A stretch of DNA of 49,204 nt from an uncultured Thermoplasmatales archaeon (GTDB lineage Archaea > Thermoplasmatota > E2 > DHVEG-1 > B18-G2). The DNA is taken from NCBI GenBank assembly GCA_964432835.1, contig CAYSPA010000001.1, forward strand, positions 1 to 49,204. The letters run 5' to 3'. The position numbers and the translations under genes were made by a program. Numbering within the stretch: the stretch's first letter is position 1; each line of letters starts with the position of its first letter. Shown piece by piece: positions 6,576-41,971 of the stretch. A model generated the notes under the pieces. That model made no database searches and was not told the origin of the DNA. It saw only the letters and a program-made list of their open reading frames with translations.

Positions 6576-6685
6576 GAGAATTTACGTATCCGCTAATTGT
6601 GGATTTTACAGATATAAACCCAAGTTGAGCGGAAACCGGATACAAAGGGGAACGAAACCTTTACAGCAAAATCATTTGGGCAAGA

Positions 6686-6757
6686 TGGACTCGTGGGGAT
6701 TCGAACCCCAGGCCTCCCCCATGCCAAGGGGGCGATCTACCGCTGATCTACGAGCCC
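6686..6757 (-). tRNA. tRNA-Ala (anticodon GGC)
   Basis: The reverse complement folds as a canonical 72-nt cloverleaf: GGGCTCG/TA/GATC-AGCGGTA-GATC/G/CCCCC-TTGGCAT-GGGGG/AGGCC/TGGGG-TTCGAAT-CCCCA/CGAGTCC/A. G3:U70 alanine identity pair present. No encoded CCA and no intron. Confidence 0.95.
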
Positions 6758-6783
6758 ACTATTCTATAATAAAGGAAAGCGGG

Positions 6784-6791
6784 TATATAAA
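6784..6791 (-). promoter_or_regulatory. TATA box for tRNA-Ala
   Basis: The minus strand reads TTTATATA, centred about 30 nt upstream of tRNA position 1. Confidence 0.6.
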
Positions 6792-6834
6792 AATTTACAG
6801 AGGACATTTCCCATAATGTTCATAAAAATCTTTA

Positions 6835-7166
6835 GCGGGCGCAGGAGAACCGGAGGTGGACACGCTGGTATAGGGGCGATTTAGCCCACCCACCTTCTTA
6901 ACCCCGTTTACCCCCAGAGCATCGGCGGTCCGCGATGAGGCTGCTCCCTTCCGGGCCTGACCCGGTTTTCGCGGCAAAGGCGGGCATGTTGCCCTCCGAC
7001 AACATGCTACCGCCACCCCCAATCCCTGGGGACGAGGTCTCATCGTTGATGGGTGGATCGCCCCTTACACCAGTGTGCCGCCCTCCGGCTTTCGGCTCCG
7101 GCGTATAGGGGATTTCCGGTTGCAGGGGACCCCTAACCCCCCAGCCTATCCTGCGCCTTTCGCCGG
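6835..7166 (-). ncRNA. Signal recognition particle RNA (archaeal 7S RNA)
   Basis: About 320-330-nt GC-rich block in an AT-rich context. The minus strand contains the helix-8 signature GGTCAGGCCCGGAAGGGAGCAGCC. The termini pair (GGCGCAGGA ... TCCTGCGCC), and the long helix-5 arms pair (GGGGCGATCCACCCATC ... GGTGGGTGGGCTAAATCGCCCC). A T5 tract follows the 3' end. Ends are good to about +/-10 nt. Confidence 0.9.
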
Positions 7167-9047: not shown

Positions 9048-9350
9048 ATGGGGATCAGCATCAAGATTTACAAGAAAGGTGAGGATATCCTCATAGGAGC
9101 ATGCGACGAGGAACTACTCGGCAAGAGATTAAAAGAAGGAAAATTCAGGTTACACGTCAAAAAGACTTTTTATGGTGGGAGAATCGTCGATGAAAAAACA
9201 TTCGCTGCCTATCTGAAAGAAGCCACTATCGCAAATCTCGTTGGAAAAAGAACAGTCGAGTGTGCAATAAAGATGGGGTACGTGAATCCCAGATGTGTGC
9301 TCTATATCCAGGGAGTCCCTCATGCCCAGATGGTGAAGATGCTGGAGTGA
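9048..9350 (+). CDS. DUF424-family protein
   Basis: 100 aa. ILIGACDEELLGKRLKEGKFRLHVKKTFYGG matches the conserved archaeal DUF424 pattern. Confidence 0.7.
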   Translation: MGISIKIYKKGEDILIGACDEELLGKRLKEGKFRLHVKKTFYGGRIVDEKTFAAYLKEATIANLVGKRTVECAIKMGYVNPRCVLYIQGVPHAQMVKMLE

Positions 9351-9377
9351 ATTGCAAATCAAATCGGACAGGCATTA

Positions 9378-9857
9378 TCATTCTGTTTTCCCATCGCTGT
9401 TCACCTTCTCTATCCTTGATTTCATGTTATCCCAGTGGGTTCCTTTCCAGTATATTCTACCGCAATTCTCACAGTACCAGAACTCATCATGTCTGTTATA
9501 GACCCTATCCGGCACCTTACCTTTAACCTTCTCTTTATCTATCTTAGCCAAGATATTATTGCAAACAGAACATCTGGAGAGAATCTTATTCTCATCAATC
9601 GGATATTCTGATATCACTGCTCTTATCTGCTCATCCAGGTCTGTACTCTTTATCTCCACAGCAGAGATATTTTCCCTTTTTGCTCTCCTGACAAGATATT
9701 TATCTCTGGTAAGGATAACTCTCCCTTCTCTCTTTGCTCTCTCGATGATCTCATCATCACTCTCTATCCTATCAGCAAAACAGACATCGAATCCCAGAAT
9801 CCTCAACCACTTTGCAAGCGTGCCCAGCATCTGGTCACACAGAAATTTCACTTCCAT
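9378..9857 (-). CDS. Mut7-C RNase-domain protein (PIN-like domain plus C-terminal zinc ribbon)
   Basis: 159 aa. N-terminus FLCDQMLGTLAKWLRILGFDV is typical of Mut7-C/DUF82. C-terminal CSVCN...CENCG zinc ribbon. Overlaps the upstream reductase gene by 10 nt. Confidence 0.75.
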   Translation of the reverse strand: MEVKFLCDQMLGTLAKWLRILGFDVCFADRIESDDEIIERAKREGRVILTRDKYLVRRAKRENISAVEIKSTDLDEQIRAVISEYPIDENKILSRCSVCNNILAKIDKEKVKGKVPDRVYNRHDEFWYCENCGRIYWKGTHWDNMKSRIEKVNSDGKTE

Positions 9858-10507
9858 GGCTCATACCTTATCAGCAAGCCATCTCCAAGTTTTTTAACTT
9901 CCTTCAACCTGAGTTTTATAATTTCATTCTCGTTTTTCACACCTTCACCATCCGCTATAGTAGGCGTACTGGCTCCGCCGATTATGATGGGCGAGATGTA
10001 TATGTTAAACTCATCGAAAAGCCCCTCTTTCAAGAAGTTCCATATAACCGTTGCCCCTCCCTCGACGAGCAACCTTTTTATTCCCTTCTCTCTCAGCAGT
10101 TTCATTGCTTCCTTTAAATCTATGAGTCCATCTTTGCTCAGATTACATCTCAGAACCTCTACATCTTCCTTCTCAATGGTTCTTTCGGCATCCTTTCCTG
10201 TTAGAATGTAAACCTTTGTGCCACCTTTGAAAACCTCAGCATCCTCTGGTATCCTCAATTTTGTATCGAGCACCACCTTTGCGGGCTGTTTTGGAGTATC
10301 GTACTTCACATTGAGCTTTGGATCATCGGTAAGCACCGTTCCTATTCCAACAAGAACCGCATCACATTCCTCTCTCAATCTCATCACTCTATCAAAATCC
10401 TCTTTCGATGATATTCTGACCTGTCTTTTATCTGGTAAGGCTATCTTTCCATCAGCGGAGGCGGCGCAGTTTATTATTATGTACGGTCTTTCTTCTTTGG
10501 ATACCAT
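9848..10507 (-). CDS. 2,5-diamino-6-ribosylamino-4(3H)-pyrimidinone 5'-phosphate reductase (RibD C-terminal-domain type, riboflavin/F420 pathway)
   Basis: ORF 9848..10654. The N-terminal 49 codons overlap thyX and look non-protein-like, so I prefer ATG 10507 (MVSKEERPYIIINCAASADGKIA). GTVLTDDPKLN and LLVEGGATVIWNF are typical RibD_C motifs. Confidence 0.8.
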   Translation of the reverse strand: MVSKEERPYIIINCAASADGKIALPDKRQVRISSKEDFDRVMRLREECDAVLVGIGTVLTDDPKLNVKYDTPKQPAKVVLDTKLRIPEDAEVFKGGTKVYILTGKDAERTIEKEDVEVLRCNLSKDGLIDLKEAMKLLREKGIKRLLVEGGATVIWNFLKEGLFDEFNIYISPIIIGGASTPTIADGEGVKNENEIIKLRLKEVKKLGDGLLIRYEPWK

Positions 10508-11157
10508 GGGCAATCCTCCCTTTTCTCTGGACATATACCTCTGGTCTTGCAAGGAGGACCTGCCTTCCTGAAAATCGTTGGTGCTATCTTCTTCACCTCG
10601 TTCAGCATCCTCCATGCGAGTTCTCTGATTTCCCACTGGGCATGCATACAGCATCTCAGCTCAAAGAAATTCAAAAGAGACCTTGCGTTCATGGTTACAA
10701 TGATGTTCGTCTTTGCGGCATTTGGGAGAACGTATCTCGCATCCTCTTCGGGTATTCCTTCATCGATCAGATGGTTGTATTCGTCCCATACTTTTTTCAT
10801 GAAATCTTCGTATCTCCTTTTCAAATTTTCATCCTTCTCCACAGAGGGAGGCATAACATACTCGGCATCTTCAAACCTCACATACCTCTGACTCTGCTGA
10901 GAATAACTTGCTATTCTATGTCTAACAAGTTGATGGGTTAGCGCTCTACTCACTCCAGATATCGCAAATGTAAAACTCGCGTGCTCTACAACACTCAGAT
11001 GACCAAGGTCCATGACATGAGAGAGTATATTCCTGAGAGAATCGTCGTCCATCTTCTCTACTTCTTCCGGCTTCTTTTTGCTGTGTGTCAGTGCTGCTGC
11101 TATGGCGCAGACCTTCTCTGGATCTGGAGTATGGGATATGATTCTGACATCCATCAC
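10477..11157 (-). CDS. thyX: FAD-dependent thymidylate synthase
   Basis: 226 aa with the ThyX signature LVRHRIASYSQQSQRY (RHR-x7-S-x-R). Confidence 0.9.
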   Translation of the reverse strand: MMDVRIISHTPDPEKVCAIAAALTHSKKKPEEVEKMDDDSLRNILSHVMDLGHLSVVEHASFTFAISGVSRALTHQLVRHRIASYSQQSQRYVRFEDAEYVMPPSVEKDENLKRRYEDFMKKVWDEYNHLIDEGIPEEDARYVLPNAAKTNIIVTMNARSLLNFFELRCCMHAQWEIRELAWRMLNEVKKIAPTIFRKAGPPCKTRGICPEKREDCPWYPKKKDRT

Positions 11158-11190: not shown

Positions 11191-11871
11191 CTAAACGATA
11201 ACAACCGCTATTATGCCAAATACCGCAAAAACATCATCTCCAGTGGCAACAAGTTTTTCCAGAATATTCTCTCTGTTGGCAACGTCGAGAACATCCACAT
11301 AAAACAGGAAAGGTTTGCCTTTATTCTCTCCTATCCTCCAGTATCTCTTTTTATCCTTCTCTATCTTTTCCCTCCTCTCCTTCAGTATAAATCCAATATC
11401 CTTCCCCTCTTTGATCCGGGTGAACGCCTGGCGCACCGCCCATGTATAAAAATCAAGAACAGTGTAATCTGCAATTCTCATGTGGAGTTTCCAATCTTTA
11501 TCGGTGAGTTCCTTTGATGTTTTTACCTCGCTCAACTTCAAATCTTCAAAATCTTCAGGTGAATTTGTAATAACGGGCGAGATGTATACAGAGGAGAGGC
11601 AGAGAACCTCGCTGATCATTTCATTGAGAACATCGGAGAACACATCCTTTGCCATTCTTATACATTCATTTGGATAAGAAAGCACCACCAGATTTTTTCT
11701 TTCGGGAATTTTTCCCTTCATCAGGGGAGTGACACCCAGATTTCTGTATCTGAACCTCGACAGGAGCCATTTCAATCTCTCTCCAGATTTTTCTTTTTCC
11801 TTCCAGTGAATAACCCCTCTGAGGTTTTTGACGATCGCCGCATAGTTGTAAAAGGATATCATTTCTTCCAT
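11191..11871 (-). CDS. Hypothetical protein, no family recognised (C-terminal hydrophobic tail)
   Basis: ORF 11191..12027. The first 52 codons would overlap the divergent mrpE-like gene, so ATG 11871 (MEEMISFYNY...) is preferred. K/E-rich with a hydrophobic tail VFAVFGIIAVVIV. Confidence 0.5.
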   Translation of the reverse strand: MEEMISFYNYAAIVKNLRGVIHWKEKEKSGERLKWLLSRFRYRNLGVTPLMKGKIPERKNLVVLSYPNECIRMAKDVFSDVLNEMISEVLCLSSVYISPVITNSPEDFEDLKLSEVKTSKELTDKDWKLHMRIADYTVLDFYTWAVRQAFTRIKEGKDIGFILKERREKIEKDKKRYWRIGENKGKPFLFYVDVLDVANRENILEKLVATGDDVFAVFGIIAVVIV

Positions 11872-11989
11872 GTGCTGACACCAAATGGTGTATGAAATGG
11901 CGTAATGTAATACTAACGCTCTGGAGATATCAAAAAACGATAAAGTTTTAAAAGACTCTTTTGTTTCAGCAAAACTGGAGGCAAGAGAG

Positions 11990-12505
11990 ATGAAGAAGTT
12001 TATAGTTACATCATTCATCTGTTTCATCGCTTACCTGATATTCACGGCGGGAAGTGGCAACATAGGCTTCTGGAGCATCGAAGAGATCCTCTTTGGTATA
12101 ATGGTTGCCGTCCTGGTTGGCTATATATCCAGGAACATCTTCATCAAAAACGATTTTCGAATGCTCAATCCCAAAAGATGGTTATACGGTATAGCTTATC
12201 TGTTTCCCTTTTTCTTGGCGATGGCGAAGGCAAACTTTGATGTTGCGTATAGAGTTATTACTGGAAAAATCAGACCCGGAATAGTGAAAATCTCTCCCAA
12301 TCTGAAAACCGATTTAGGCATAACCATGCTCGCCAACTCGATAACATTAACGCCGGGAACACTCAGTGTTGATATAGATGAGAAAACCAACAATCTCTAC
12401 GTTCACTGGATAAATGTCAAGGATGCTGCTCTCAAAAAGAAGCCGAGACCATACGAGTATGTATGCGGTAAATTCCCCAAATGGATAAGGAGGATTGCCG
12501 AATGA
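11990..12505 (+). CDS. Mrp/Mbh membrane arm: MrpE/MnhE (MbhA)-like subunit
   Basis: 171 aa with two N-terminal TM helices and a MnhE-like core (LANSITLTPGTLSVDID). First gene of a 10-gene overlapping operon. Confidence 0.75.
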   Translation: MKKFIVTSFICFIAYLIFTAGSGNIGFWSIEEILFGIMVAVLVGYISRNIFIKNDFRMLNPKRWLYGIAYLFPFFLAMAKANFDVAYRVITGKIRPGIVKISPNLKTDLGITMLANSITLTPGTLSVDIDEKTNNLYVHWINVKDAALKKKPRPYEYVCGKFPKWIRRIAE

Positions 12506-12762
12506 TGGATGCATTTCTGCTCTCGATAATAATTCTCCTGATATCCATACTCCTTGCAGCGATAAGACTCATACTGGGTCCTACAGTCCCGGATAGAGTC
12601 GTTGGTCTCGACACCATAAACACTCTTGTGATAGTTCTGATGATACTGTTCGGAGCGTACTATCGCGAGATAATCTACATAGATGTGGCTATAGTATATG
12701 CTCTCCTGTCATTTGTTACGACCATACTCATAGCGAAATATCTGGAGGGTGGTAGGATATGA
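12502..12762 (+). CDS. MrpF/MnhF (MbhB)-like subunit
   Basis: AAGGAGG lies 8 nt upstream of ATG 12502. RLILGPTVPDRVVGLDTIN is the MrpF signature. The start overlaps the previous stop. Confidence 0.8.
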   Translation: MMDAFLLSIIILLISILLAAIRLILGPTVPDRVVGLDTINTLVIVLMILFGAYYREIIYIDVAIVYALLSFVTTILIAKYLEGGRI

Positions 12763-13115
12763 TCGTTACTGCACTGATTTACATATTTCTTGCCATAGGT
12801 GTTACCTTTAACCTGCTTGGGTCTCTTGCCCTGCTGAGATTTCCAGATGTATATACAAGGTTGCATGGCGGCACAAAATGCACAACATTTGGTTCCATAT
12901 TTCTCTCAGGTGCAGTGATAGTATATGGATTGAAAGAATGGTATCTTCATCCTACCGTCTCCTCCCCGATACTGCCAATTCATGCCCTCGTTGCTTTGAT
13001 AGCTATATTAATAACCAACCCAACAGGAGCTCACGCGATTGCAAGAGCCGCCCACAGAAGCGGCATCAAGCCGGTAAAAGCCGTTGTTGATGACCTTGAG
13101 GAGGAGAAAAAATGA
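12759..13115 (+). CDS. MrpG/MnhG (MbhC)-like subunit
   Basis: 118 aa. LGSLALLRFPDVYTRLHGGTK is typical of MnhG. 4-nt overlap with the previous gene. Confidence 0.8.
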   Translation: MIVTALIYIFLAIGVTFNLLGSLALLRFPDVYTRLHGGTKCTTFGSIFLSGAVIVYGLKEWYLHPTVSSPILPIHALVALIAILITNPTGAHAIARAAHRSGIKPVKAVVDDLEEEKK

Positions 13116-13360
13116 TGGAGATACTTCACGCCATACTTCCGATATTCATAGTGATAGCCGCGATATTTGCAATTTATTTTAGAGATCTGATATCAGCAAC
13201 GATAGCTCTTGCCGCGATGAGCTTGATTCTTTCGCTGGAATTCTACATCCTGCAGGCGCCGGATGTGGCGATAGCAGAAGCAGGAGTGGGGGCATGTTTA
13301 ACAACAGCCATCTTGATATTTGCAATTAAAGCCACAAGGAGGATGGAGGAGAGAAGATGA
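13112..13360 (+). CDS. DUF4040 / MbhD-like small membrane subunit (MrpB N-terminal-like)
   Basis: 82 aa with LQAPDVAIAEAGVGACLTT (APDVALTE-type motif). 4-nt overlaps on both sides. Confidence 0.7.
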   Translation: MMEILHAILPIFIVIAAIFAIYFRDLISATIALAAMSLILSLEFYILQAPDVAIAEAGVGACLTTAILIFAIKATRRMEERR

Positions 13361-13626
13361 ATAAGATAGCGATCCTGATAGCCTTCGTTATATTCTCCTG
13401 TGCACTGATTTCAACCACTTTAATATTGAGACCATTTGGAGAACCCAGATCTACGGAGATGGACGATTACATAATAAAAAATGCCCAGAACGAAACCGGG
13501 GCAAACAATGCAGTTACCAGCGTAGTGTTTGATTACAGAGGATTTGATACCCTTGGAGAGGCTACGGTTTTGTTTACCGCGGTTGCTGGGGTTTTAGCTG
13601 TGTTAAGGAGGTATGCTCATGAATGA
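13357..13626 (+). CDS. MbhE-like small membrane subunit (MnhB-related)
   Basis: 89 aa with NAVTSVVFDYRGFDTLGEATVLF (the DYRGFDTLGE motif of MnhB-related proteins). Confidence 0.7.
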   Translation: MNKIAILIAFVIFSCALISTTLILRPFGEPRSTEMDDYIIKNAQNETGANNAVTSVVFDYRGFDTLGEATVLFTAVAGVLAVLRRYAHE

Positions 13627-14104
13627 ACCATCAAAGATCGTTAAGACTATTGCATCGATAATCTTTCCATTCATAACCGTTTACGGATTGTATATAATCG
13701 TTCATGGTCATCTCACTCCAGGAGGAGGTTTTCAGGGCGGAGCAATCACAGCTTCTGGCATAGTTCTCCTTCTCGTAGCATTCGGCTCTGCTGAGATCGC
13801 TAAAAAAATCAAAGAATCTCATCTGTCCATTTTGGAAAGCATAGGTGCTTTAAGCTTCATATCATTGGCCCTCCTTGGATTATCGGCAACTTTCTTCTAC
13901 AACTTTCTGGCGGGATCAAACTTCATATTTGGGAGAATACCTCCGTTTGGGAGCAACCCCGGAGATATGAATACCGGTGGTGTGCTTCCTCTGATGAACA
14001 TAAGCGTTGGTTTAAAGGTGATAGCGGGTCTCTCAGCCATGGTGCTTGCATTGGCACTCTTTGCAAGGTTAAAGAGGGGTAGAAAGGGGGTCAGGAAGAA
14101 ATGA
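13613..14104 (+). CDS. MrpB/MnhB (MbhF)-like subunit
   Basis: 163 aa with HGHLTPGGGFQGGAI (the PGGGFQGG motif). Confidence 0.8.
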   Translation: MLMNEPSKIVKTIASIIFPFITVYGLYIIVHGHLTPGGGFQGGAITASGIVLLLVAFGSAEIAKKIKESHLSILESIGALSFISLALLGLSATFFYNFLAGSNFIFGRIPPFGSNPGDMNTGGVLPLMNISVGLKVIAGLSAMVLALALFARLKRGRKGVRKK

Positions 14105-14460
14105 TATACAATATTCCTTACATGGCATCTGCAATCCTTGTGATAGTAGGTCTCTATGCGGTCCTGTTCAAGAGAAATCTAATAAAGATCGCCATAGGTA
14201 TCACCGTTCTGGAGAGTGGGGTCAATCTATTTCTCATAACTTTAGGATACAGAGAAAATGCGGTTGCACCCATCTACACAAATCTTCCGGAAGGCACAAG
14301 TATACCTGAAGGAATGACACTCCCAGTTCCTCAAGCGTTGACACTGACGAGCATAGTGATAGGGGTTGCGGTGCTGGCTTTGATCCTTTCCTTTGCGGTA
14401 AAGATATATCAGCATTATGGAACGCTCGATTCCAGAGAGGTAAGGAGGTTGAGGGAGTGA
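14101..14460 (+). CDS. MrpC/MnhC / NuoK (MbhG)-like subunit
   Basis: 119 aa, three TM helices, GITVLESGVNLFLITLG (NuoK-like Glu-containing helix). Confidence 0.8.
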   Translation: MIYNIPYMASAILVIVGLYAVLFKRNLIKIAIGITVLESGVNLFLITLGYRENAVAPIYTNLPEGTSIPEGMTLPVPQALTLTSIVIGVAVLALILSFAVKIYQHYGTLDSREVRRLRE

Positions 14461-16019
14461 ATATGAGCTATGTGCTATTGCATGCGCCCGCCCTATTGAT
14501 TGCGATACCGCTGTTTGCGGCATTTCTCACGCCTATCATAGATCGATTTAGCAAAAGAGTGAGAAACATCTTTGTTTTAGCTGTATTGATAATTGAAGAG
14601 ATACTCATGATAATTTTTGCATGGGATGTTTTTACAAACGGCATCCATGTCTACACGATGGGCGCGCCTAATCCAACTTCTACGGTACCATTGCAGTCTG
14701 CAGTTCCAGTGAGAATAGTTCTAGAAGTTGATGGAATGAGTGCTTTCATGGGATTGATAAGTACAACCGTTTCGCTCGCTGCGGGATTTTATTCAATTGC
14801 TTTCGTGAGAAAGGAAACGGGGCAGGGAAAATTTTACACCTTGCTTTTGCTCATGCTGGTTGGCATGCTCGGTATGGAGTTCACCGGCGATATGTTCAAT
14901 CTTTTTGTCTTCTTTGAGATTCTCTCAATAGCATCGGCAGCTCTTGTAGCATATCGCTCTTATTACGGTGATGCGGTAGAGGGTGCTTTCAAGTACCTGA
15001 TCATCTCTTCAATTGCAGGATCGATAGTCCTCTTTGCCATAGCCATTCTTTATGGACAGTACGGCGTGCTGAACATAGCTGCCCTCGCAAAAGCCATGAA
15101 GTCTACTACTCTTGATATGATAGCACTTGTTTTGCTTATCTCGGCATTTGCCATGAAATGTGGCTCTGTACCAATGCATTTCTGGATTCCCGATAGCTAT
15201 ACGGTCGCTCCCGCTTCGATAACCGCAATGCTCGTTGTTGCAAGCCAGGCGAGTTTGTATGCCCTATTCAGGATATGCTTCTCACTTTACGGAAACACCT
15301 CATATGTGGCAACATCTGGTGCAATCTTAATTCTTTTTGGACTTCTTTCGATGTTTATTGGAGTAACCATGGCTATACCTCAGAAGGATATCAAACGCTT
15401 GATGTCATACCATGCAATCAGCCAGACGGGATACATGCTCCTCGGCGTCGGCGCAGGGCTTTATCTCCTTGGAAACCCGGATTTCAGCACCCATGGAATG
15501 GCTGCGATGGAGGGAGGCATATTTCACATCTTCAACCATGCTCTCTACAAAGGTCTTCTTTTCCTCACCGCGGGTGCAATATTCTACAAGACCAAAACGC
15601 GCAATCTGAATGAGATAAGGGGCTTAGCGCATTCCATGAAGTTCACGACGATCTTCTTTTTGATAGGTGCATTCTCGATCGCCGGCTTGCCTCCATTCAA
15701 TGGATTTGCCTCAAAATTACTCATTTATGAGTCTGTTTATCATGTCAATCCAATCCTGTCTATAATTGCGATGCTCGTCTCAATATTAACGCTCGCATCT
15801 TTCATGAAGGTATTCCATTCGGCATTCATGGGTCCACCCATGAAGGATGTTGAGAGGGGAGATGTGCCGAAGAGCATGTTATTCGGGATGATGGTTCTAA
15901 CGGCGGGTATAATCCTGTTCAGCATAATTCCCGGGTGGGTTGTTGGTCATATCGTCCATCCGGCTGCTCAATCTCTCGCAAATCAGTCAGCATATATACG
16001 GGCGGTGATGGGTGATTAG
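14457..16019 (+). CDS. MrpD/MnhD / NuoM-N (MbhH)-like proton-conducting antiporter subunit
   Basis: 520 aa, polytopic. FFEILSIASAALVA, KCGSVPMHFWIPDSY and HALYKGLLFLTAG are typical of the NuoL/M/N-MrpD family. Start GTG 14457 or ATG 14463. Confidence 0.9.
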   Translation: MNMSYVLLHAPALLIAIPLFAAFLTPIIDRFSKRVRNIFVLAVLIIEEILMIIFAWDVFTNGIHVYTMGAPNPTSTVPLQSAVPVRIVLEVDGMSAFMGLISTTVSLAAGFYSIAFVRKETGQGKFYTLLLLMLVGMLGMEFTGDMFNLFVFFEILSIASAALVAYRSYYGDAVEGAFKYLIISSIAGSIVLFAIAILYGQYGVLNIAALAKAMKSTTLDMIALVLLISAFAMKCGSVPMHFWIPDSYTVAPASITAMLVVASQASLYALFRICFSLYGNTSYVATSGAILILFGLLSMFIGVTMAIPQKDIKRLMSYHAISQTGYMLLGVGAGLYLLGNPDFSTHGMAAMEGGIFHIFNHALYKGLLFLTAGAIFYKTKTRNLNEIRGLAHSMKFTTIFFLIGAFSIAGLPPFNGFASKLLIYESVYHVNPILSIIAMLVSILTLASFMKVFHSAFMGPPMKDVERGDVPKSMLFGMMVLTAGIILFSIIPGWVVGHIVHPAAQSLANQSAYIRAVMGD

Positions 16020-16356
16020 GATGTTGCGCACACCTGGTGGATATTGGGATCCTCTGATATGGTTGCTGGTATTTGTAGTTGCAATCCTCATAGTATATAT
16101 AATACGCGCATTTGGGAGATCAGACTATAAGGGGGGAGAGCAAACCAAGCCCTTCCTCTCCGGTATGGATGTTCCCGATGAGGACGCCCTCCACATCAGG
16201 GCGGGAAACATATACTGGGGATTTATGCGGGCTTTGGAGGGATACTACGATGTTCTGAGGAAGTATCATACCGGGATAGTAAATGACTATGTTGCGTGGT
16301 TTGTGGGCGTATCTGTGATTCTGCTCGTGATCTTTTTCATCGTGGGGGTGATCTGA
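16012..16356 (+). CDS. MbhI-like small membrane subunit
   Basis: 114 aa with an N- and a C-terminal TM helix flanking an amphipathic segment (YWGFMRALEGYYDVLRKYHTGIVNDY). Its position after the MrpD-like gene matches mbhI. Assignment is from memory of the Mbh operon, not from a search. Confidence 0.5.
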   Translation: MIRMLRTPGGYWDPLIWLLVFVVAILIVYIIRAFGRSDYKGGEQTKPFLSGMDVPDEDALHIRAGNIYWGFMRALEGYYDVLRKYHTGIVNDYVAWFVGVSVILLVIFFIVGVI

Positions 16357-16381
16357 TACAGATGGCAAGGGGGTTGATCAG

Positions 16382-17407
16382 TTGATAGAGGTGATAGATC
16401 AGTTATTCAAAGCCGTGTTTGGAGAGATAGTAATAGGGGTTTTCGCAATCATTATCGCTCTACTTTATAAGGGTATTGATAGAAAGATAGCCGCCCGTAT
16501 GCAGTCCAGGGTCGGACCGCCTGTGAGACAACCATTCAGAGATGTGATAAAGCTTTTCCTCAAAGAGAACGTTGTGCCGAGACATGCCACGAAGTGGCTA
16601 TTCAATTTATCCCCCGTAATTGCACTTGCATCTTCTATGACTATTCTGTTATACCTGCCAATGGGGAGTTTTGGACCCATACTTTCTACAGAAGGTGATC
16701 TTATACTTATTCTATATCTTTTGATCATACCATCCCTTGCCATGGTACTGGGTGGATTTGCATCAGGTTCACCTTACGCTACAGTCGGTGCACAGAGGGA
16801 GATGGTCCTGATGATGTCTCTGGAATTCCCCCTCGCCGTTGTTATCGTATCTCTGGCATGGAGACTGAAAGAAGTGGGGGTTTCAAACCCATTTTCACTC
16901 GTATCAATATCCTCAAATCCGATATGGAACAACGTCGGGGTTGTTGGTATAGTGGGATGTTCGATATTGCTATTGGTCCTTCTCCTGATAACACCTGGAG
17001 AGCTATCAAAGATACCGTTTGATGTGCCGGAGGCGGAGACGGAGATAGCGGGAGGTCTGCTTGCGGAATACTCTGGCAGAAATCTGGCCATGTTCTATCT
17101 CACCGATGCGGTGAAGACCGTAGTGGTGGCATCACTTATCGTGACTCTCTTCTTCCCCTACAATCTCTCGCCTTTCCTTTCGTTTTCCGGAATAACAGCT
17201 TACATCGTTGATTTCCTGTTCTATCTGTTCAAACTATTCCTTGTGATACTTTTTGCCGTCACCATGGTGAGGGTTGGCGTGGCGAGACTCAAGATAGACC
17301 AGGTAACAGCTGTGTACTGGATTAACTTAACATTGCTTGCGCTGATCGGACTGGTTCTCCTGATGTTCGACAAAATCCTGGTCATGAAAGGAATCTCGAT
17401 TTTTTGA
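16382..17407 (+). CDS. NuoH / HycD / MbhM-like membrane subunit
   Basis: 341 aa with a TTG start. DRKIAARMQSRVGPPVRQPFRDVIKLFLKE is the NuoH/HycD N-terminal signature; about 8 TM helices. Confidence 0.8.
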   Translation: MIEVIDQLFKAVFGEIVIGVFAIIIALLYKGIDRKIAARMQSRVGPPVRQPFRDVIKLFLKENVVPRHATKWLFNLSPVIALASSMTILLYLPMGSFGPILSTEGDLILILYLLIIPSLAMVLGGFASGSPYATVGAQREMVLMMSLEFPLAVVIVSLAWRLKEVGVSNPFSLVSISSNPIWNNVGVVGIVGCSILLLVLLLITPGELSKIPFDVPEAETEIAGGLLAEYSGRNLAMFYLTDAVKTVVVASLIVTLFFPYNLSPFLSFSGITAYIVDFLFYLFKLFLVILFAVTMVRVGVARLKIDQVTAVYWINLTLLALIGLVLLMFDKILVMKGISIF

Positions 17408-17676
17408 AAATGCCTGAAAATGGTACCATCGACATCTGTCCAGAGAATAACAATCGCACTTCATTCTTTCCTTTGTTTGAGATGATGTCAGGTGAGGAAT
17501 GGGTGCAATTGTTAAAATATTTGTTGGAGAAAAAATCATCATTATGAGGTGCTGTGAGACATTTGTTGATATTTATCCCAAAGGATAAAAAACAACTCAT
17601 CCATGGTATGATCTTGGAACACCATCGACCGATACACATATATAAGGCATGAATCTATTTATATCTGTTCGGTGAT

Positions 17677-18519
17677 ATGAGAATGAGCCGGGGTGGATTT
17701 GTTTTTGTGGTTGTGGCGCTACTGCTCTGCGCAATATGGGTGGATGAACAAACCCTATGTATAGTTGGATTTCCATTAAGTGGAACAGATGAAAACGATG
17801 CATCACAGGGTGATGATGCAACGAATGAGGTATGGAACCTGGGGTATGTCAGGGTTATTCATTTCTGGACATTCGTGAGACGCATGGATTCTTTTCACCG
17901 AAACGAAACAACAAAGACGTGGGTAACCGATAGAAGTGCAGGAAGTGTAGAAGTAGATGCAGTTGTTAAGTGTAAAGTTGTGGAATTTCCACACATAACA
18001 CTTTCTCCTTTGCCAATGCCGGTGGTTCTCCATTGGCATCTCCACTCCACCAACGGTAGGGGAAGCGGTTTTTGCATATTCTGGCCACCTTTCGAAGATT
18101 GGTTCACTTACAACTGCCACCCATATCCCATCTCCATCCCGGGTAAAGTTAGAGTACATCTGCCAGAGAATTTCACTGGGAATAGCATGAACCTGACATT
18201 CAGAGGCAGGGTTTGGGCAAACCTACATTCTCGCCCAATGGGAACATTTACCTTGCACATAATAGTGAAAAATGACACCGGCAATGAATCGAATGGTAAC
18301 AGCAATTCCAATTCGGAGTATAACTGGTACCGGGAGAAAGGTGTTGCCTACTATGCAAAACCATCCTACAATATTGTCGCAACATCCTTCACCGATGAAA
18401 ATGGCATAACAACAGCTAAATTGAACATAGCCAATTATCTTAGAAACATGGGAGATGATGAAATCATATACACCTATGGTGCTGACACAGGTGATTACAG
18501 AGTGGATATCGATGGATAG
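17677..18519 (+). CDS. Secreted/anchored hypothetical protein with Asn/Ser-rich linker
   Basis: 280 aa with N-terminal anchor GGFVFVVVALLLCAIWV, many N-x-S/T sequons and a low-complexity stretch NDTGNESNGNSNSNSEYN. TATA-like ATATATAAGG and CTATTTATATC upstream. Confidence 0.65.
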   Translation: MRMSRGGFVFVVVALLLCAIWVDEQTLCIVGFPLSGTDENDASQGDDATNEVWNLGYVRVIHFWTFVRRMDSFHRNETTKTWVTDRSAGSVEVDAVVKCKVVEFPHITLSPLPMPVVLHWHLHSTNGRGSGFCIFWPPFEDWFTYNCHPYPISIPGKVRVHLPENFTGNSMNLTFRGRVWANLHSRPMGTFTLHIIVKNDTGNESNGNSNSNSEYNWYREKGVAYYAKPSYNIVATSFTDENGITTAKLNIANYLRNMGDDEIIYTYGADTGDYRVDIDG

Positions 18520-18531
18520 AGAAGTGATAAC

Positions 18532-19152
18532 ATGAACAACAGAGTATTATTTCCTTTCTTTATCATTTTTCTTTTGATATCTCCAGTGATATATCCAGCC
18601 ATATCTGAAGGAGTTTATATGGAAAAGACGGTGAAAGAGAACGATGCTGAGGAGACAGAAAAGTTGGTTCATCATATCATAGTATTCCCATATTCACAAC
18701 CAATACCTCTGCAGATAATAAACCTCCTTTATATACATGGTGTGCAGTTCGGTACCGCTGATTTCTACGATATCACGGATGATGAACCGATAACCGTGCA
18801 TGTTAACTATTCGGTGATATGGCAGGATAACCACGCAGTACTCCTCAGTCGTTCCGAGAAGCATAGAATATCTACACACTATGCCTTTGCAATTGCACCA
18901 GATGCATTTGTCAGAGATATAAACAAAAAAATAAAAACACCGGTGGGTTTTTACACCCTCAGAATAGAACTATATGTTGAGGAAGATAATTCGAGTAAAG
19001 TTGTGGAAATACCTGGAGTGATGTTTTATTATATATGCATGCTATCAACCGGTCCATCTCTGCTCACCTATCTGAAGGTCGTTCTGAGCTATATACCATG
19101 GGTAAAGGAGTATCTGCACGATTTCATATACAGTAATGTCTGGGATCCATGA
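18532..19152 (+). CDS. Secreted/anchored hypothetical protein
   Basis: 206 aa with signal-like NNRVLFPFFIIFLLISPVIYPAISEG. The motif FYTLRIELYVEEDNS resembles FLKAELYNEKGE in 2388..2942. Lies 12 nt after the previous gene. Confidence 0.65.
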   Translation: MNNRVLFPFFIIFLLISPVIYPAISEGVYMEKTVKENDAEETEKLVHHIIVFPYSQPIPLQIINLLYIHGVQFGTADFYDITDDEPITVHVNYSVIWQDNHAVLLSRSEKHRISTHYAFAIAPDAFVRDINKKIKTPVGFYTLRIELYVEEDNSSKVVEIPGVMFYYICMLSTGPSLLTYLKVVLSYIPWVKEYLHDFIYSNVWDP

Positions 19153-23559: not shown

Positions 23560-26500
23560 TTATATACGGGTTATCTCCTCATACATCTCTCGCAGAGCAT
23601 CTCTGTAATCGAGTTTGCCCTCCTCTATTTCGTCTATCTTTCTGTAAAGCACGCGCGTCCTATCTTCGGAAACAAAATCGCGGTATCTGCTGTTTAGATA
23701 GTGATTTACTCTCTTGCCGAGGGATGTCGAAAACAGAAGCCTGTTCCTCTCATAAATGTACTTCCTTTCGAACAGTTTTTCCAGGATGGTGGCATAGGTC
23801 GAGGGTCTTCCCAGACCTCTCTCCTTCATCAATCTAACAACATCCGCCTGAGTGTAGGGATACCCCTCTGGAACAAATCTCGTTTCAACCCTTGTTCTGT
23901 ACTTCCCGACGGGTATCTCTCTCTTGAGGTGTACGTTTCGATATAGGTCAAACGCCCTGCCGCTTGCGGCAACTATTCTTTCATCCTCGATCTCTCTTCC
24001 ATCTATCTTTATGAGATAACTCTTAACCCTGACGGTGAAATCTCTGCACTGACTTGCCATGAACCTTTTGAAAATCAAATCGTACAGTGCCAGATGTTTC
24101 TTTGTTATATTTTCTGGAGATATCACCCGCTCGTAAATCATTCTCTGCAGCATATATCTATCCCATGCCCTGGTTGGTCTTATGCACTCGTGAGCTCCCT
24201 CATCTGCGCCGGTGCCCCATCGTCTGCCTTGAAAATCATCGCCCAGATACTCTCTGGCAATCCTGAGACCAACATCACTCACTCTATTTGAATCTGTTCT
24301 GTGGTATGTTATGAGACCATTCTCGAAGAGGTCCTGTGCCAGTTTCATGGTTTCGCCGGATGAGAGTTTGAGGATTCTGCTGGCATCTCTGAGGAGTTCA
24401 TCCGTTGTGTGTGGTGGAAGAGGGGATCTCAACTCTTCTCTATCAGAGGAAAGGATAACCTCCACATCCACCTCTTTATCAAAATCTCCCTCAACCTCTA
24501 TATCCAGTTCGGGCAGGATATTGACCTTTCTTCTCTTCCTGTATTTGTTCTCCTGTTCGATAATCCAGCCCAGAACGGGCGTCTGCACCCTGCCGGCGGA
24601 GAGATTCGTTTTGTTGAATTTTTCCCATAACTTATGTGATAGAGTAAAGCCGATCCATCTATCCTCAATCCTTCTCACGATCTGGGCTTTGACCCTGTTC
24701 AGGTCTATATCCCTGAGGTTCTGAAGAGCCTCTCTTATGGCTCTTGCGGTAACCTCGTGAAATTCCGCTCTTTTCACTTCGGCCAGTGGGGAAACGAAAT
24801 TATGAATATCCCATGCTATCTTCTCCCCCTCAGCATCGGGGTCTGTCCCGATTATCACCAATCCCGCCTGCGATGCCAGTTTTCTGATATCTTCTATCCT
24901 GTCCTTAGAGTCAAGAATATCATTGCTTCCACATTTCGGGCAGGCGCCCTCTGATGTGTACTGATAGTTGCATTTTTTACATCTCTTGATGGAAGAATAG
25001 ATCGGCACAAAATCCTCTCCAATCTCCACGCCGTAAAAGCCTCTATCCGTGGAGAGGTCAACAACGTGACCAAGACATGCTGTCACGATGAGAATGAACT
25101 TTTCTGTGGGGATTTCATATGCAATTATACTCCCATATATCTTCACGCTGGGCTTTCCAAAGAATCTCGATATGAGCCGGGCTTTTGTCGGGCTTTCAAC
25201 TATAAACAGGGCGGGTCTTATTAGATCAATACTTTCAACCTTTCTGCTCCTGCTTTCCTCGATCTCTCTCCTTAAACTTTCAAAATCGACATCTTTGAGA
25301 TTTTTTATCTCGATGTCATAGTACGATGCCCTTTCCCTGAATGCCCGGATGACTTTTTCGTTATTTTCAAATATAAAGGAAGCACCTTTCGTTAGACCTC
25401 TCACGGTTAATCTCGAAGCCCTGCCGGAACCCTGAATATACGTTCTCACATCCGGGAAGATTATGTGCTTTCCCTCAATAACAAAATCCCTGCTAACATC
25501 CTCTTTATAAATCTCTCTTATCAGCTCTTTAAGTTCCTGTATTTTATCCGGATAATTTTCCAGTTTTGGTAGAATTGGAAGATAATCTCTTATCCTCTCA
25601 TCATCCTTTGCTGAAAGTGCCAGTATTCTGAGCAGAGAGGGCGATATTCTATCGTAATCCGTTCTTATAACGGGTACACCGATGAAAATCACGTATCTTA
25701 TCTTTTCCGGCAAATCCAGACCCCTCACAAGAGTACCATAGTGTGATGCCGTACCTATCAGAAAGTCAACCTCGCCATTTTCAAACTTCTCATATTCGTT
25801 CTTTTTCTTCGATATGGATATCCCTATCCTGAAGTGCTTTTTTAACTCTTCATAGTACTTTTCAGCTTCTTCGGAAGACCTTGCATATATGATGCCTCCC
25901 TTCCCCATGGTTCTCATGACCTCTCTTATTGCATTTACATCTTCTCTGCCCACGAATATGTCTTCTATATTTCTTATGGAGAAGAAAGAAGAGCCAACGT
26001 CGAAATCCAGCAACTCTCTGAAGAGGATGGTTGCCCTTCCCTTCTTTGCCGTTGCGGTCGAGACCATCAGCACGCCTTTTCTCTCTCCCTTCCATTCCTT
26101 TCCCACTTTTCTGAAACCCAATAGAGAAAGAATCCTGTCCACATTTCTCGATGCCTTCAGTATGGCATCGACATCATCAACGAAGATGAAATCAAAAACA
26201 AAGTCCTTCAGCATATCAAAATTTCTGGATAGAAACTGTGTCGTTGTTACCAGTATCTCAAATTTCCCTTCTTTCACGATGCTCTCAAACTTTTCCCTCT
26301 CCTTTTTTCCCAACTTCCCATGATAGAATGCTATTCTGACATCACCGTCATCATTTATCCCGATACTCTTTCCCATTTTTTCGCAGAACCTTTCCAGATT
26401 CTCTTTGCACTGCTTTGCAAGAATCGTCGTTGGAACCAGTATGTAACTTCTTTTTCCTTTCAGAGAAAAGAAAAGAGAGACCACCAGCCCAAAAACCGTC

Positions 26501-26751
26501 TTACCTATGCCGGTGGGCGCAACCGCAGCAAAACTTTCCCCCCTGGATATCCTCCTTATCCAGAACCTCTGAATCTCTCTCGGCTTCCCTATTACATCCC
26601 TGAATAGATTTTCTATTTCATCTTCTATCTTGTTATGGTAAACCGATGGCAGAGGTTTTCCCTTGATCAAACACTTTCCCGCATCTATATCCCTGTCTCT
26701 CAAATCGCTGCCACACACTGGACAGAGATTCTCGTAGACCGCCGGAAGCAT
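23560..26751 (-). CDS. rgy: Reverse gyrase
   Basis: 1063 aa. N-terminal zinc finger CPVCGS, helicase motifs APTGIGKT and FVDDVD, internal zinc ribbon CKKCN...CPKCGS, topoisomerase IA domain with TOPRIM IIGTDPDAEGEKIAWD and active-site GLITYHRTDS. Confidence 0.95.
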   Translation of the reverse strand: MLPAVYENLCPVCGSDLRDRDIDAGKCLIKGKPLPSVYHNKIEDEIENLFRDVIGKPREIQRFWIRRISRGESFAAVAPTGIGKTVFGLVVSLFFSLKGKRSYILVPTTILAKQCKENLERFCEKMGKSIGINDDGDVRIAFYHGKLGKKEREKFESIVKEGKFEILVTTTQFLSRNFDMLKDFVFDFIFVDDVDAILKASRNVDRILSLLGFRKVGKEWKGERKGVLMVSTATAKKGRATILFRELLDFDVGSSFFSIRNIEDIFVGREDVNAIREVMRTMGKGGIIYARSSEEAEKYYEELKKHFRIGISISKKKNEYEKFENGEVDFLIGTASHYGTLVRGLDLPEKIRYVIFIGVPVIRTDYDRISPSLLRILALSAKDDERIRDYLPILPKLENYPDKIQELKELIREIYKEDVSRDFVIEGKHIIFPDVRTYIQGSGRASRLTVRGLTKGASFIFENNEKVIRAFRERASYYDIEIKNLKDVDFESLRREIEESRSRKVESIDLIRPALFIVESPTKARLISRFFGKPSVKIYGSIIAYEIPTEKFILIVTACLGHVVDLSTDRGFYGVEIGEDFVPIYSSIKRCKKCNYQYTSEGACPKCGSNDILDSKDRIEDIRKLASQAGLVIIGTDPDAEGEKIAWDIHNFVSPLAEVKRAEFHEVTARAIREALQNLRDIDLNRVKAQIVRRIEDRWIGFTLSHKLWEKFNKTNLSAGRVQTPVLGWIIEQENKYRKRRKVNILPELDIEVEGDFDKEVDVEVILSSDREELRSPLPPHTTDELLRDASRILKLSSGETMKLAQDLFENGLITYHRTDSNRVSDVGLRIAREYLGDDFQGRRWGTGADEGAHECIRPTRAWDRYMLQRMIYERVISPENITKKHLALYDLIFKRFMASQCRDFTVRVKSYLIKIDGREIEDERIVAASGRAFDLYRNVHLKREIPVGKYRTRVETRFVPEGYPYTQADVVRLMKERGLGRPSTYATILEKLFERKYIYERNRLLFSTSLGKRVNHYLNSRYRDFVSEDRTRVLYRKIDEIEEGKLDYRDALREMYEEITRI

Positions 26752-35059: not shown

Positions 35060-35587
35060 ATGACGCCAACAGAAGACCTTGAAAAGCTCATTCCCGAACT
35101 GCAGTGGATAGATGACGAAGATTTGAAGGAAAAGGTTATCAGAGTGTGGATAGAAGCTACAAGGAGAGGTGGATGGAATAATGTACAGGAAATTCCTTTT
35201 ACCCTATCTTTCAAGAACTCGGGAACACTGATCGAGCATACGAGGAGGGTCGCTAAACTGGTCAAAAGTGTGGCTTCACAGAGAGACGAGGAGATCAATA
35301 TGAACCATCTCATTGCTGGCGCCCTGCTGCACGATATCGGCAAAGCCCTGGAATACGAGAAAGTTGGAAACGAGATAAGGGTAAGCGAATACGGGAAAAA
35401 GGTGAGACACCCCATATCCGGAGCAAATCTGGCAAGAGAACTCGGTGTACCAGAGGAGGTTGCTCATATCATAGAGAGTCATTCTCATGAAGGGGACAAA
35501 ATGAAGAGGAGCAGGGAATCCATCATCGTTCATCACTGCGATTTCATCGATTTTGAGTTGAGGAGGAGAGAGGTTGAAGGAGATTAA
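35060..35587 (+). CDS. HD-domain metal-dependent phosphohydrolase
   Basis: 175 aa with the H...HD motif as LLHDIGKALEYE plus downstream His residues (IIESHSHEGD). Overlaps the next gene by 14 nt. Confidence 0.75.
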   Translation: MTPTEDLEKLIPELQWIDDEDLKEKVIRVWIEATRRGGWNNVQEIPFTLSFKNSGTLIEHTRRVAKLVKSVASQRDEEINMNHLIAGALLHDIGKALEYEKVGNEIRVSEYGKKVRHPISGANLARELGVPEEVAHIIESHSHEGDKMKRSRESIIVHHCDFIDFELRRREVEGD

Positions 35588-36707
35588 AGTTGGCACCGAA
35601 AACGAGAGGGATTGTCTTGTAACGGTCAGAGATGGTAAAGGCGTAAATATCAATGCCGAGGCAAAGGTGGAGCTGACCAGAGAAGATATCGTCGATGTCA
35701 TCGAGGAATGTATAAATCTCTACGATGTTGATAACATAAATGTAACGGTGCGAGAATTTGGCGCCCTCGATTACGTAATAAGAGCGAGAACCTGCTGCGC
35801 CCTCTACAAATTCACCGGAAAAAAGGTGAAAGAGGAGGTCTTCACCAGAAAAGAAACAGAAAGAGACAAACTCAGGAGAAGCAGGCTGTATGTTCCCGGA
35901 AACAACCCGAGATTGCAGATAAATGCGGGTATATTTGGAAGTGATTGTATCATTCTCGACCTTGAAGATTCCGTACCTCCCGAGCAGAAGGAGGCAGCCA
36001 GATTCCTCGTTAAGGAGGCGCTGAAAACCCTCGATTTTGAAGAGACGGAGGTGTGGGTGAGAGTGAACAGAGAGTTTCTCGAGGAGGATATCGAGCAGGT
36101 GCTCGTGGGAAATCCACACGGAATATGCCTGCCAAAAAGCGAGTGCGCGGAGGATGTAAAAGAGGTTGAGAGAATCATAGGGAAATACGAAAAGATGTAC
36201 TCCATAAAGGGTACAAAACTGATGCCAATAATAGAGAGCGCAAGAGGTATATTGAATCTCGAGGAAATCGCGGGAGCAAGTGATAGAATAGTTGCCCTCG
36301 CTTTTGGTGCCGAGGATTTCACCAGAGATATCGGAGGAGAGAAGAGCTGGGATACTTTACTGTATGCACGCTCAAAGCTCGTTACAGTTGCAAAATCCTT
36401 CGATATACAGGCTCTCGATACAGTTTATAGTAGAATTGATGATATCGAGGGGCTCATGGAAGAAACGAGAAGAATCATAAAGATGGGCTTCGATGGTAAG
36501 GGTGCAATCCATCCGGAGCAGATAAGATACATACACGAGTGCTTTACACCCACGGAAGAGGAAATCGAATATGCCAAGAGAGTTATGGAAGCTATAGAGG
36601 AAGCTAAAAAGCGAGGCCTTGGTACAATCTCTCTTGACGGTAGGATGATAGACAAACCAATCGTCAAAAGAGCGGAGAGAATATTGAGATTGGGAGGTGT
36701 GCTATGA
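35574..36707 (+). CDS. citE: Fusion of citrate lyase acyl-carrier (CitD-like) domain and citrate (pro-3S)-lyase beta / citryl-CoA lyase (CitE)
   Basis: TTG start behind GAGGAGGAGAGAGG. The N-terminal ~90 aa is CitD-like (VGTENERDCLVTV..., FGALDYVIRAR). The rest is CitE/HpcH-like (RRSRLYVPGNNPR, IILDLEDSV, AFGAEDFT). Confidence 0.75.
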   Translation: MKEIKVGTENERDCLVTVRDGKGVNINAEAKVELTREDIVDVIEECINLYDVDNINVTVREFGALDYVIRARTCCALYKFTGKKVKEEVFTRKETERDKLRRSRLYVPGNNPRLQINAGIFGSDCIILDLEDSVPPEQKEAARFLVKEALKTLDFEETEVWVRVNREFLEEDIEQVLVGNPHGICLPKSECAEDVKEVERIIGKYEKMYSIKGTKLMPIIESARGILNLEEIAGASDRIVALAFGAEDFTRDIGGEKSWDTLLYARSKLVTVAKSFDIQALDTVYSRIDDIEGLMEETRRIIKMGFDGKGAIHPEQIRYIHECFTPTEEEIEYAKRVMEAIEEAKKRGLGTISLDGRMIDKPIVKRAERILRLGGVL

Positions 36708-38784: not shown

Positions 38785-38801
38785 TTGAGAGGGTGATTTG
38801 C

Positions 38802-39929: not shown

Positions 39930-39935
39930 ATCGAT

Positions 39936-41455: not shown

Positions 41456-41460
41456 GTGGA

Positions 41461-41970
41461 GTGACGGTATGGTTTACCGGTTTGCCGTGCTCCGGTAAAA
41501 CAACGATAGCGAGAGAAGTTATGAAAAGACTGGAAGGCAAATATGATGTCGAGTTGCTGGATGGTGATACCGTAAGAGATTACATAAGAAACAGGGATTT
41601 TTCGAGGGAAGGTAGAAACAAACACCTGAGATACATAGCGCTGATGGCGAGATTACTCTCAAAGAGAGGGGTGATCGTCCTCTGCTCCTTCGTGAGTCCA
41701 TACAGGGAGAATAGGGATTTTGCCAGAAAGATAAACGATAACTTCGTGGAGGTCTACGTGAAGGCACCTTTGGAGGTTTGCATAGAGAGGGATGTGAAGG
41801 GCATGTACAAAAAGGCACTGAACGGAGAGATAAAGGGCTTTACCGGTATAGATGACCCCTACGAAGAGCCAGATGATCCCGAACTGGTCATCGAGACGGA
41901 TAAAGAGACACTTGAGGAATCCACAAATAAGGTTCTAAACAAACTTCGAGAACTTGGCTATATAGATTAA
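41461..41970 (+). CDS. cysC: Adenylyl-sulfate (APS) kinase
   Basis: 169 aa, GTG start. VWFTGLPCSGKTTIA P-loop, LDGDTVR, SFVSPYRENR, FTGIDDPYEEP. Confidence 0.9.
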   Translation: MTVWFTGLPCSGKTTIAREVMKRLEGKYDVELLDGDTVRDYIRNRDFSREGRNKHLRYIALMARLLSKRGVIVLCSFVSPYRENRDFARKINDNFVEVYVKAPLEVCIERDVKGMYKKALNGEIKGFTGIDDPYEEPDDPELVIETDKETLEESTNKVLNKLRELGYID

Positions 41971-41971
41971 A

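Follow-up and report, generated by a model that had tools for sequence, protein, structure and literature searches.

A probably split Mbh-type membrane-arm operon in a reverse-gyrase-bearing Thermoplasmatales archaeon, and MBS-like peripheral modules in its relatives

In Pyrococcus furiosus, the membrane-bound hydrogenase (MBH, group 4d) is a 14-subunit complex encoded by the mbhA-N genes (structure 6CFW). A split form, with MbhABCDEFGHIM encoded apart from MbhJKLN, was described in Subgroup E of the Thermoprofundales (MBG-D, for Marine Benthic Group D) by Zhang et al. in 2022, who called the split unique to the mesophilic Subgroup E and found that, of the subgroups, just the thermophilic B and D had reverse gyrase (PMC9585477). 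Here we analysed an operon with those ten membrane-arm genes in identical order (MbhA-I and an MbhM/NuoH-like gene; 11990-17407, + strand) from an uncultured Thermoplasmatales archaeon of the same broad lineage (contig CAYSPA010000001.1 of assembly GCA_964432835.1; the whole stretch of 49,204 nt is called the window below). Low-GC relatives share the linkage of these genes to thyX. In contrast to Subgroup E, the window carries a reverse gyrase gene, and the split layout therefore extends to a thermophilic lineage. We put the probability at roughly 0.6 that this operon is one half of a split operon, with the peripheral arm encoded elsewhere in the genome. The arrangement is already published, and the locus itself is new only in that its lineage bears reverse gyrase. 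What else goes beyond the earlier study rests on the relatives: the separate arm was described there as a [NiFe] hydrogenase, whereas the modules that we found for this membrane arm are of the type of the membrane-bound sulfane reductase MBS (Mbx) of P. furiosus (structure 6U8Y).

The locus resembles P. furiosus MBH in all ten membrane-arm subunits (MbhA-I and MbhM), in its single H, in MbhI and in the match of M. Unlike the 14-gene operon, it lacks J/K/L/N genes both in the I/M gap and behind M; I is directly followed by M and no N comes after M, as in the split MBH, and J/K/L/N genes with the four NiFe cysteines in L are absent from the 49 kb. The MBS arm has H and H', with M followed by J/K/L/N, whereas the window operon has one H, separate D, E and I genes, and no J/K/L/N after M. 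An Mrp (CPA3) antiporter comprises MrpA-G with two antiporter-like proteins and lacks a NuoH-like subunit. The window operon shares with it homologues of MrpB, C, D, E, F and G and of the C-terminal pieces of MrpA (MbhD and MbhE); it differs by lacking the antiporter-like domain of MrpA and by its extra I and NuoH-like M.

The membrane-arm operon is intact, with no redox module in the window

Ten same-strand open reading frames (ORFs) make up the operon. The original prediction, made from the sequence alone, had read them as MbhA-I plus an MbhM/NuoH-like protein, and Pfam and NCBIfam agree for all ten. The gene mbhA (MrpE-like, 171 aa, 11990..12505) matches PF01899 (MNHE/MrpE, 5.8e-37) and NF006245 (4.6e-65, above cutoff). 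It is followed by mbhB (MrpF-like, 86 aa, 12502..12762; PF04066, 3.6e-21), mbhC (MrpG-like, 118 aa, 12759..13115; PF03334 MnhG, 1e-23; NF009312, 6.5e-52), mbhD (DUF4040, a C-terminal piece of MrpA, 82 aa, 13112..13360; PF13244 MbhD, 8.3e-18; NF006242, 4.9e-29), mbhE (89 aa, 13357..13626; PF20501 MbhE, 5.4e-13) and mbhF (MrpB-like, 161 aa, 13619..14104; PF04039 MnhB, 2.5e-29; NF006248, 2.1e-51). Next come mbhG (MrpC/NuoK-like, 119 aa, 14101..14460; PF00420 Oxidored_q2, 4.6e-25) and mbhH (MrpD/NuoN-like, 520 aa, 14457..16019; PF00361 Proton_antipo_M, 2.2e-54; NF006240, 692 bits against a cutoff of 662). As the one PF00361 protein, MbhH is the sole antiporter-like subunit of the operon. The last two genes are mbhI (114 aa, 16012..16356; NF053600 MbhI, 3.2e-37, above cutoff) and mbhM, a NuoH/ND1-like membrane anchor of 341 aa with a TTG start (16382..17407). 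Membership of this 341-aa protein in the NuoH family had been named as a point on which the prediction would stand or fall, and it matches PF00146 (NADHdh) at 3.2e-70.

The junctions are tight, as had been noted before. Overlaps of 4 nt occur at B/C, C/D, D/E, F/G and G/H, and likewise at A/B if mbhB starts at 12502. The longest mbhB ORF begins at 12481; the start at 12502 is favoured, since NF009242 aligns from residue 8 and the called gene of a related locus, L001 (loci of relatives are given L numbers), has 86 aa. The H/I overlap is 8 nt, and so is that of E/F if mbhF starts at 13619; its longest ORF begins at 13613 and the called L001 gene has 161 aa. I and M are separated by 25 nt.

No homologue of NuoB/C/D/I was detected by tblastn, hidden Markov models (HMMs) or Pfam/NCBIfam scans in the whole window, which extends the earlier remark that such a module is missing beside the operon. 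With MbhJ, K, L and N of a canonical relative (L007) as tblastn queries, no match fell below E = 0.7. Each built from 60-72 sequences, the J, K, L and N HMMs had no match at E < 1 among all stop-to-stop ORFs. The Pfam and NCBIfam scans of the likely-gene ORFs yielded no NuoB/C/D/I family, and outside the operon these ORFs received unrelated assignments or none. Some ORFs of the window, such as 9048-11157, were annotated solely via their L001 homologues. Searching all frames of the I/M gap and of the spacer behind mbhM with the J/K/L/N HMMs, we found no relic of mbhL or mbhN.

The operon is complete and under purifying selection, not decaying. Against L001, the ratio of nonsynonymous to synonymous divergence (dN/dS) was 0.07-0.12 for six genes (0.08 for B, 0.12 for D, 0.09 for E, 0.07 for F, and 0.12 for both G and H). 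For mbhA, the ratio against L001 was not computable, as dS was saturated (dN 0.18). Against L004, whose M is 92% identical, dN/dS was 0.12 for M and 0.06 for I. The divergence of M relative to H was 0.80 in loci of the A-I,M type and 1.05 in canonical loci; therefore, M is not relaxed.

The best PDB match of the window M is the MBH chain 6cfw_M (220 bits, as compared to 107 bits for 6u8y_M of MBS), and by this measure it is an MBH-type protein. When M was aligned with MbhM and NuoH, a check that the original prediction had proposed, the cytoplasmic loops were found to be retained in 12 A-I,M-type lineages. The loop between transmembrane helices 1 and 2 keeps GIDRK..ARMQ.R.GPP.RQPF.D..K...KE and that between helices 5 and 6 keeps PFD.PEAE.EI..G.L.EYSGR; E148, the equivalent of E141 of P. 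furiosus MbhM, is conserved in the same lineages. M and I are the two subunits that exist only to hold and couple the peripheral arm (PMC8679088, PMC7684303), and in the MBH structure a loop of MbhI extends to the catalytic chamber of that arm (PMC8679088). We agree with the general rule invoked earlier, by which a partner of the NuoB/D type is to be expected wherever there is a NuoH-like subunit.

Compared with L001 (5600-11026), the operon has a mosaic make-up. H, I and M are 97-100% identical with dS of 0.01-0.05, F-G are intermediate (dS ~0.4), and A-E are 72-80% identical with saturated dS. This pattern suggests either recombination, with a breakpoint inside the operon, or a chimeric contig of the metagenome.

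Peripheral modules in related genomes

We surveyed 80 genome loci of M relatives. Most are canonical mbhA-N operons of Aciduliprofundum and the deep-sea hydrothermal vent Euryarchaeota 2 (DHVE2), Thermococci, Atribacterota and Synergistaceae, and the gene order in canonical relatives (L007, L011, L037 and others) is I-J-K-L-M-N. A Thermoplasmata clade carries A-I,M without J/K/L/N nearby (L004, L006, L008, L009, L010, L012, L013, L016, L019 and L020); L008 is a complete chromosome (CP070798.1) with a thyX-linked A-I,M. The M proteins of the A-I,M-type lineages are 58-92% identical. In the M tree, the window M falls into one clade with SG8-52-3-type loci, adjoining Aciduliprofundum, and the nearest genomes are Thermoplasmata metagenome-assembled genomes (MAGs) from the Auka and Guaymas vents. 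The upstream order of the window (DUF424, Mut7-C, RibD_C and thyX, then A-I,M) recurs in L001, L008, L010, L012, L013, L016, L020, L091 and L098. Because the window and the clade loci have this order in common, the arrangement is old and was inherited at one locus. The slot between thyX and mbhA is occupied by a redox module in L091, by a bare gap of 212 nt in L098 and by the ORF 11191-12027 in the window.

One relative, L026, gives a view of the origin of this order. About 50 codons of the 3' end of a canonical mbhL lie between its I and M (6642-6854, E 2.5e-6; SIDLCIGHMDRVAVVD...KTRRLMK). This relic shows that the A-I,M order there arose by deletion of J-K-L, and the segment is the scar left by loss of the hydrogenase genes. 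Two similar candidates were dismissed: a 46-aa ORF between I and M of L091 is no detectable relic, and an apparent L pseudogene in L084 is merely a 100-N scaffold gap.

Starting from L026, we traced a four-gene module of the NuoB/C/D/I type, written jkln below. The retrieval used MBS-like L queries only, and stand-alone operons of NiFe-type JKLN lie outside this sample. In L026 itself, ABCDEFGHIM is followed by convergent n, l, k and j, 97 nt past M. L091/L092 (GCA_027076135.1) has the order jkln-ABCDEFGHI-M, with the module between thyX and mbhA and the flanking gene order of the window, and its M is 68% identical to that of the window. L161 reads M-jkln, and in L084 the module lies 5' of a complete canonical operon. 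The order in L175-L180 is ABCDEFGHI-jkln-M-I-JKLMN, found in part in L171, L173, L174, L178 and L181. These contigs of the Joint Genome Institute (JGI; GC 47-49%; e.g. L175, 1-16200) thus hold one antiporter module and then two peripheral modules, one MBS-like and one NiFe-type, each with its own M; the M copies fall into different neighbour-joining clades.

The module also occurs alone, in L085, L093-L097, L102-L104, L186 and 15 further JGI loci. In the 15 JGI loci, flanks of at least 3 kb on either side hold unrelated genes and no NuoH gene belonging to the module, and none lies beside the modules of L085 and L093-L097. In one MAG, CAZTMK01 (GCA_964615235.1), both halves are present on separate contigs, each longer than 50 kb: contig 17 (L010) carries thyX-ABCDEFGHIM, contig 16 (L104, CAZTMK010000016.1) carries a stand-alone jkln, and their tetranucleotide correlation is r = 0.98. 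A recurring set of neighbours accompanies jkln in L085, L093-L097 and L102-L103: DUF134 and DUF5320 proteins, two CbiA/ParA-ferredoxin ATPases, Nitro_FeMo-Co (NifX-like) proteins, a metallo-beta-lactamase-fold protein, a radical SAM protein and FeoAB.

In L086-L089, a stand-alone jkln is followed by hdrA(mvhD)-hdrC-hdrB. In L086 (4042-10284), jkln directly precedes the gene of a 768-aa HdrA that carries a fused MvhD/FlpD domain, with genes for HdrC-like and HdrB-like (CCG) proteins next. This order hints at a link between an MBS-like head and heterodisulfide-type chemistry. The Fpo-like complex of Methanomassiliicoccales, a further case from the Thermoplasmata, is a complex-I-like module without its usual input/output module and is thought, together with HdrD, to couple ferredoxin oxidation to heterodisulfide reductase. 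The jkln and hdr genes of L086-L089 bear a likeness to it; unlike the present case, its arm is of the Fpo/Nuo and not of the Mbh/Mrp kind, and there is no hdr gene in the window.

By its residues, the relatives' module is MBS-like and not a [NiFe] hydrogenase. All 12 L proteins compared have SLN.CPAD[ML]DR in place of the DPC..C..R of MbhL, and 11 of the 12 have DR[ILV]C..E in place of R.CG.C, with P0004 lacking the first N-terminal cysteine too. The equivalent of Glu21 is absent in all 12. The best PDB chain for L is 6u8y_L at 318 bits, whereas Nqo4 reaches 250 bits and MbhL (6cfw_L) 160 bits, and the cluster loop of J is 4 residues shorter than in MbhJ. MbsL is known to retain only C85 and C385, and the cluster loop of MbsJ is shortened (PMC7684303). 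An L with two of the four NiFe cysteines (the C85/C385 equivalents) together with a short J loop is thus the pattern of MbsJKLN and marks a non-hydrogenase module. The similarity of L to MbsL is moderate, 318 bits against a self-score of ~840, which sets it apart as a distinct subfamily. The canonical loci L005 and L007 encode an L with all four NiFe cysteines (RICGICN and DPC.SCTNR). The MAG of L104, which has low GC and is probably Subgroup-E-like, carries an unlinked peripheral arm without two of the NiFe cysteines; PMC9585477 reports a [NiFe] hydrogenase.

The partner of the membrane arm

We propose that the operon encodes a complete, working membrane arm that belongs to a complex-I-like respiratory complex of the MBH family. 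A-G would form an Mrp-type Na+/H+ module, H would be its one proton-translocating antiporter-like subunit, and I with the NuoH-like M would dock and couple the peripheral arm. That arm would be a four-subunit, ferredoxin-oxidising assembly of the NuoB/C/D/I type, supplied from an unlinked locus of the same genome. A head of this type is likely to exist in the genome; given that it does, the balance tilts towards the MBS-like kind, judging from the relatives. The assembled enzyme would oxidise ferredoxin, reduce a non-proton acceptor (of the sulfane-sulfur or disulfide type) and pump ions via the Mbh-type arm. The partner step is drawn from relatives, as we did not find such an operon for the window's own genome. 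Among the three readings of the original prediction, the split system is the best supported (CAZTMK01, L091, PMC9585477). It had been foreseen that a conserved unlinked JKLN operon in this genome and its relatives would turn the case into an ordinary split operon, and by that measure the evidence from relatives reduces it to one. A further reading, in which M serves a different partner, contains some truth: in relatives, the partner is an MBS-like NuoB/C/D/I module and not the MbhJKLN hydrogenase.

Several observations weigh against this proposal. Screening composition and accessions, we traced no partner operon to the window genome. None of ~100 jkln loci, from contigs and the JGI scan, matches the window composition; the best tetranucleotide correlation is 0.84 (the 7.9-kb L186), as compared to 0.93-0.95 for window chunks of the same size. 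With r = 0.81 and GC 40%, the short L188 falls within the control range for 2.2 kb, but this carries no information. Likewise, accession numbers place no L-like protein in any MAG of the window species: its M proteins are RLF50699.1, KAA0008058.1, MCD6542024.1 and HHF58990.1, and the L-like RLF46323.1, RLF41381.1 and HEC87636.1 fall outside the same ranges. The pairing of both halves in CAZTMK01 rests on binning. The closest M from another species (L005, 76% identical) sits in a canonical JKLMN context with four NiFe cysteines in L; therefore, the partner in the window's lineage may be of either the MBS-like or the NiFe type. Two apparent leads were discarded. RLF40995 (M) and RLF41381 (L) seemed near each other but belong to separate JGI assemblies that differ in GC (34% versus 47%) and are no same-genome pair, and an OsmC gene near the window start is only 49% identical to the OsmC 3' of jkln in L102/L103 and stands in a different gene order.

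The main rival reading, in line with the view of Zhang et al. that the two arms work independently, takes the ten-gene operon as an autonomous Mrp-like Na+/H+ antiporter with no peripheral arm (PMC9585477). In their hands, MbhABCDEFGHIM from a MAG of Subgroup E let the Na+/H+-antiporter-deficient E. coli strain KNabc grow better at 0.1-0.2 M NaCl, and the two arms differed in transcript level, from which independent function was argued (PMC9585477). The cytoplasmic MBS subcomplex is active alone in vitro (PMC7684303), and a stand-alone jkln need not dock; that no partner was located for this genome fits as well. Antiport activity in E. coli is compatible with docking in the native host, however. 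An Mrp antiporter has no use for M and I, yet strong purifying selection holds both, at dN/dS of 0.12 and 0.06. Measured against H, M has diverged less than in canonical operons; it retains its loops facing the peripheral arm and the E141 equivalent, and relatives repeatedly place jkln beside these membrane genes. We consider autonomy unlikely, although the rescue of the E. coli strain is real support for it. About equally doubtful, in our view, is a true [NiFe] MbhJKLN as the unlinked partner, which would make the enzyme an ordinary H2-evolving MBH. The MBH-type M of the window and the hydrogenase motifs of its nearest canonical relatives, L005 and L007, speak for such a partner. So does the separate arm of Subgroup E, which was reported to be a [NiFe] hydrogenase of group 4d whose catalytic residues are conserved (PMC9585477). 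However, all modules retrieved with the MBS-like L queries beside A-I,M, or in a MAG with it, are MBS-like (L026, L091/L092 and L104).

The remaining views fare worse. Loss of the hydrogenase genes could have left a decaying MBH remnant, a decayed respiratory complex in the words of the original prediction: J, K, L and N are absent, and L026 illustrates an origin by deletion of J-K-L. Ten intact and tightly coupled ORFs with dN/dS of 0.06-0.12 lead us to reject this reading, and the arrangement has been kept at one locus across lineages whose M proteins have diverged as far as 58% identity; any residual chance for it is minute. It is also very improbable that the protein docked by M lacks homology to NuoB/D. 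The absence of such homologues from the window would fit, and the flanking proteins without assignment (11191-12027 and 17677-19152) would be at hand. In relatives, however, these proteins are not conserved beside the operon, and modules of the NuoB/C/D/I type are the conserved neighbours. With a split operon and an unlinked peripheral arm as the preferred reading, a wider version can be offered tentatively, at somewhat less than even odds: in thermophilic and sedimentary Thermoplasmata, deletion of the hydrogenase genes may have given rise to a hybrid of an Mbh arm and an Mbs-like head, with the two halves often lying apart.

Flanking features and consequences for the family

Upstream of the operon, a TATA-box-like element read from the sequence, TTTTAAAA (11946..11953, +), lies 37-44 nt 5' of the mbhA ATG, and GGAGG stands ahead of mbhA at 11977-11981. 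The two are candidates for the operon promoter and the ribosome-binding site. On the opposite strand, an ORF of at most 278 aa (11191..12027, -) without Pfam or NCBIfam match sits between thyX and mbhA; counted from its first ATG, it shares 38 nt with the beginning of mbhA. L001 has a homologue at the same position plus an additional 315-aa gene without assignment. Downstream, a 269-nt spacer (17408..17676) closes the operon, in keeping with the ~270 nt after the stop at 17407 noted earlier. T-rich runs occur at 17400-17405 and 17460-17479, and no Rfam or tRNA match was obtained in the spacer. Behind it, 17677-18519 and 18532-19152 encode two proteins with hydrophobic N-termini and no family match.

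The reverse gyrase gene (23560-26751, -), a GGGP synthase and an archaeal signal recognition particle (SRP) RNA are found elsewhere in the window, whose organism is, from its gene content, a thermophilic archaeon. A tRNA-Ala(GGC) adjoins the SRP RNA (218 bits; 6684-7156, -). Citrate-lyase genes occupy 35574-38239 (+), where a CitE-like beta subunit fused to an N-terminal acyl carrier protein (gamma) domain precedes CitF. A sulfate-activation cluster (38793-42757, +) comprises ATP sulfurylase, a DHH-family protein, a sulfotransferase, APS kinase and a TauE/SafE exporter.

In metabolic reconstructions, 'Mbh' genes are taken as a sign of an H2 producer, and this operon alone is insufficient for that call. 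With a head that lacks the NiFe site, as in the relatives, a sulfur or disulfide compound would take the place of protons as the predicted electron sink. If the hybrid of an Mbh arm and an Mbs-like head is real, the 'split hydrogenase' of Thermoprofundales would at least in part be an ion pump driven as a ferredoxin:sulfane/disulfide oxidoreductase instead of an enzyme that evolves H2, and Subgroup E would not be alone in having the split. The series of loci, from canonical operons through those with both modules and the one with a relic to the split ones, pictures the swapping of peripheral modules on one membrane arm, which is the process invoked for the transition from MBH to MBS to complex I.

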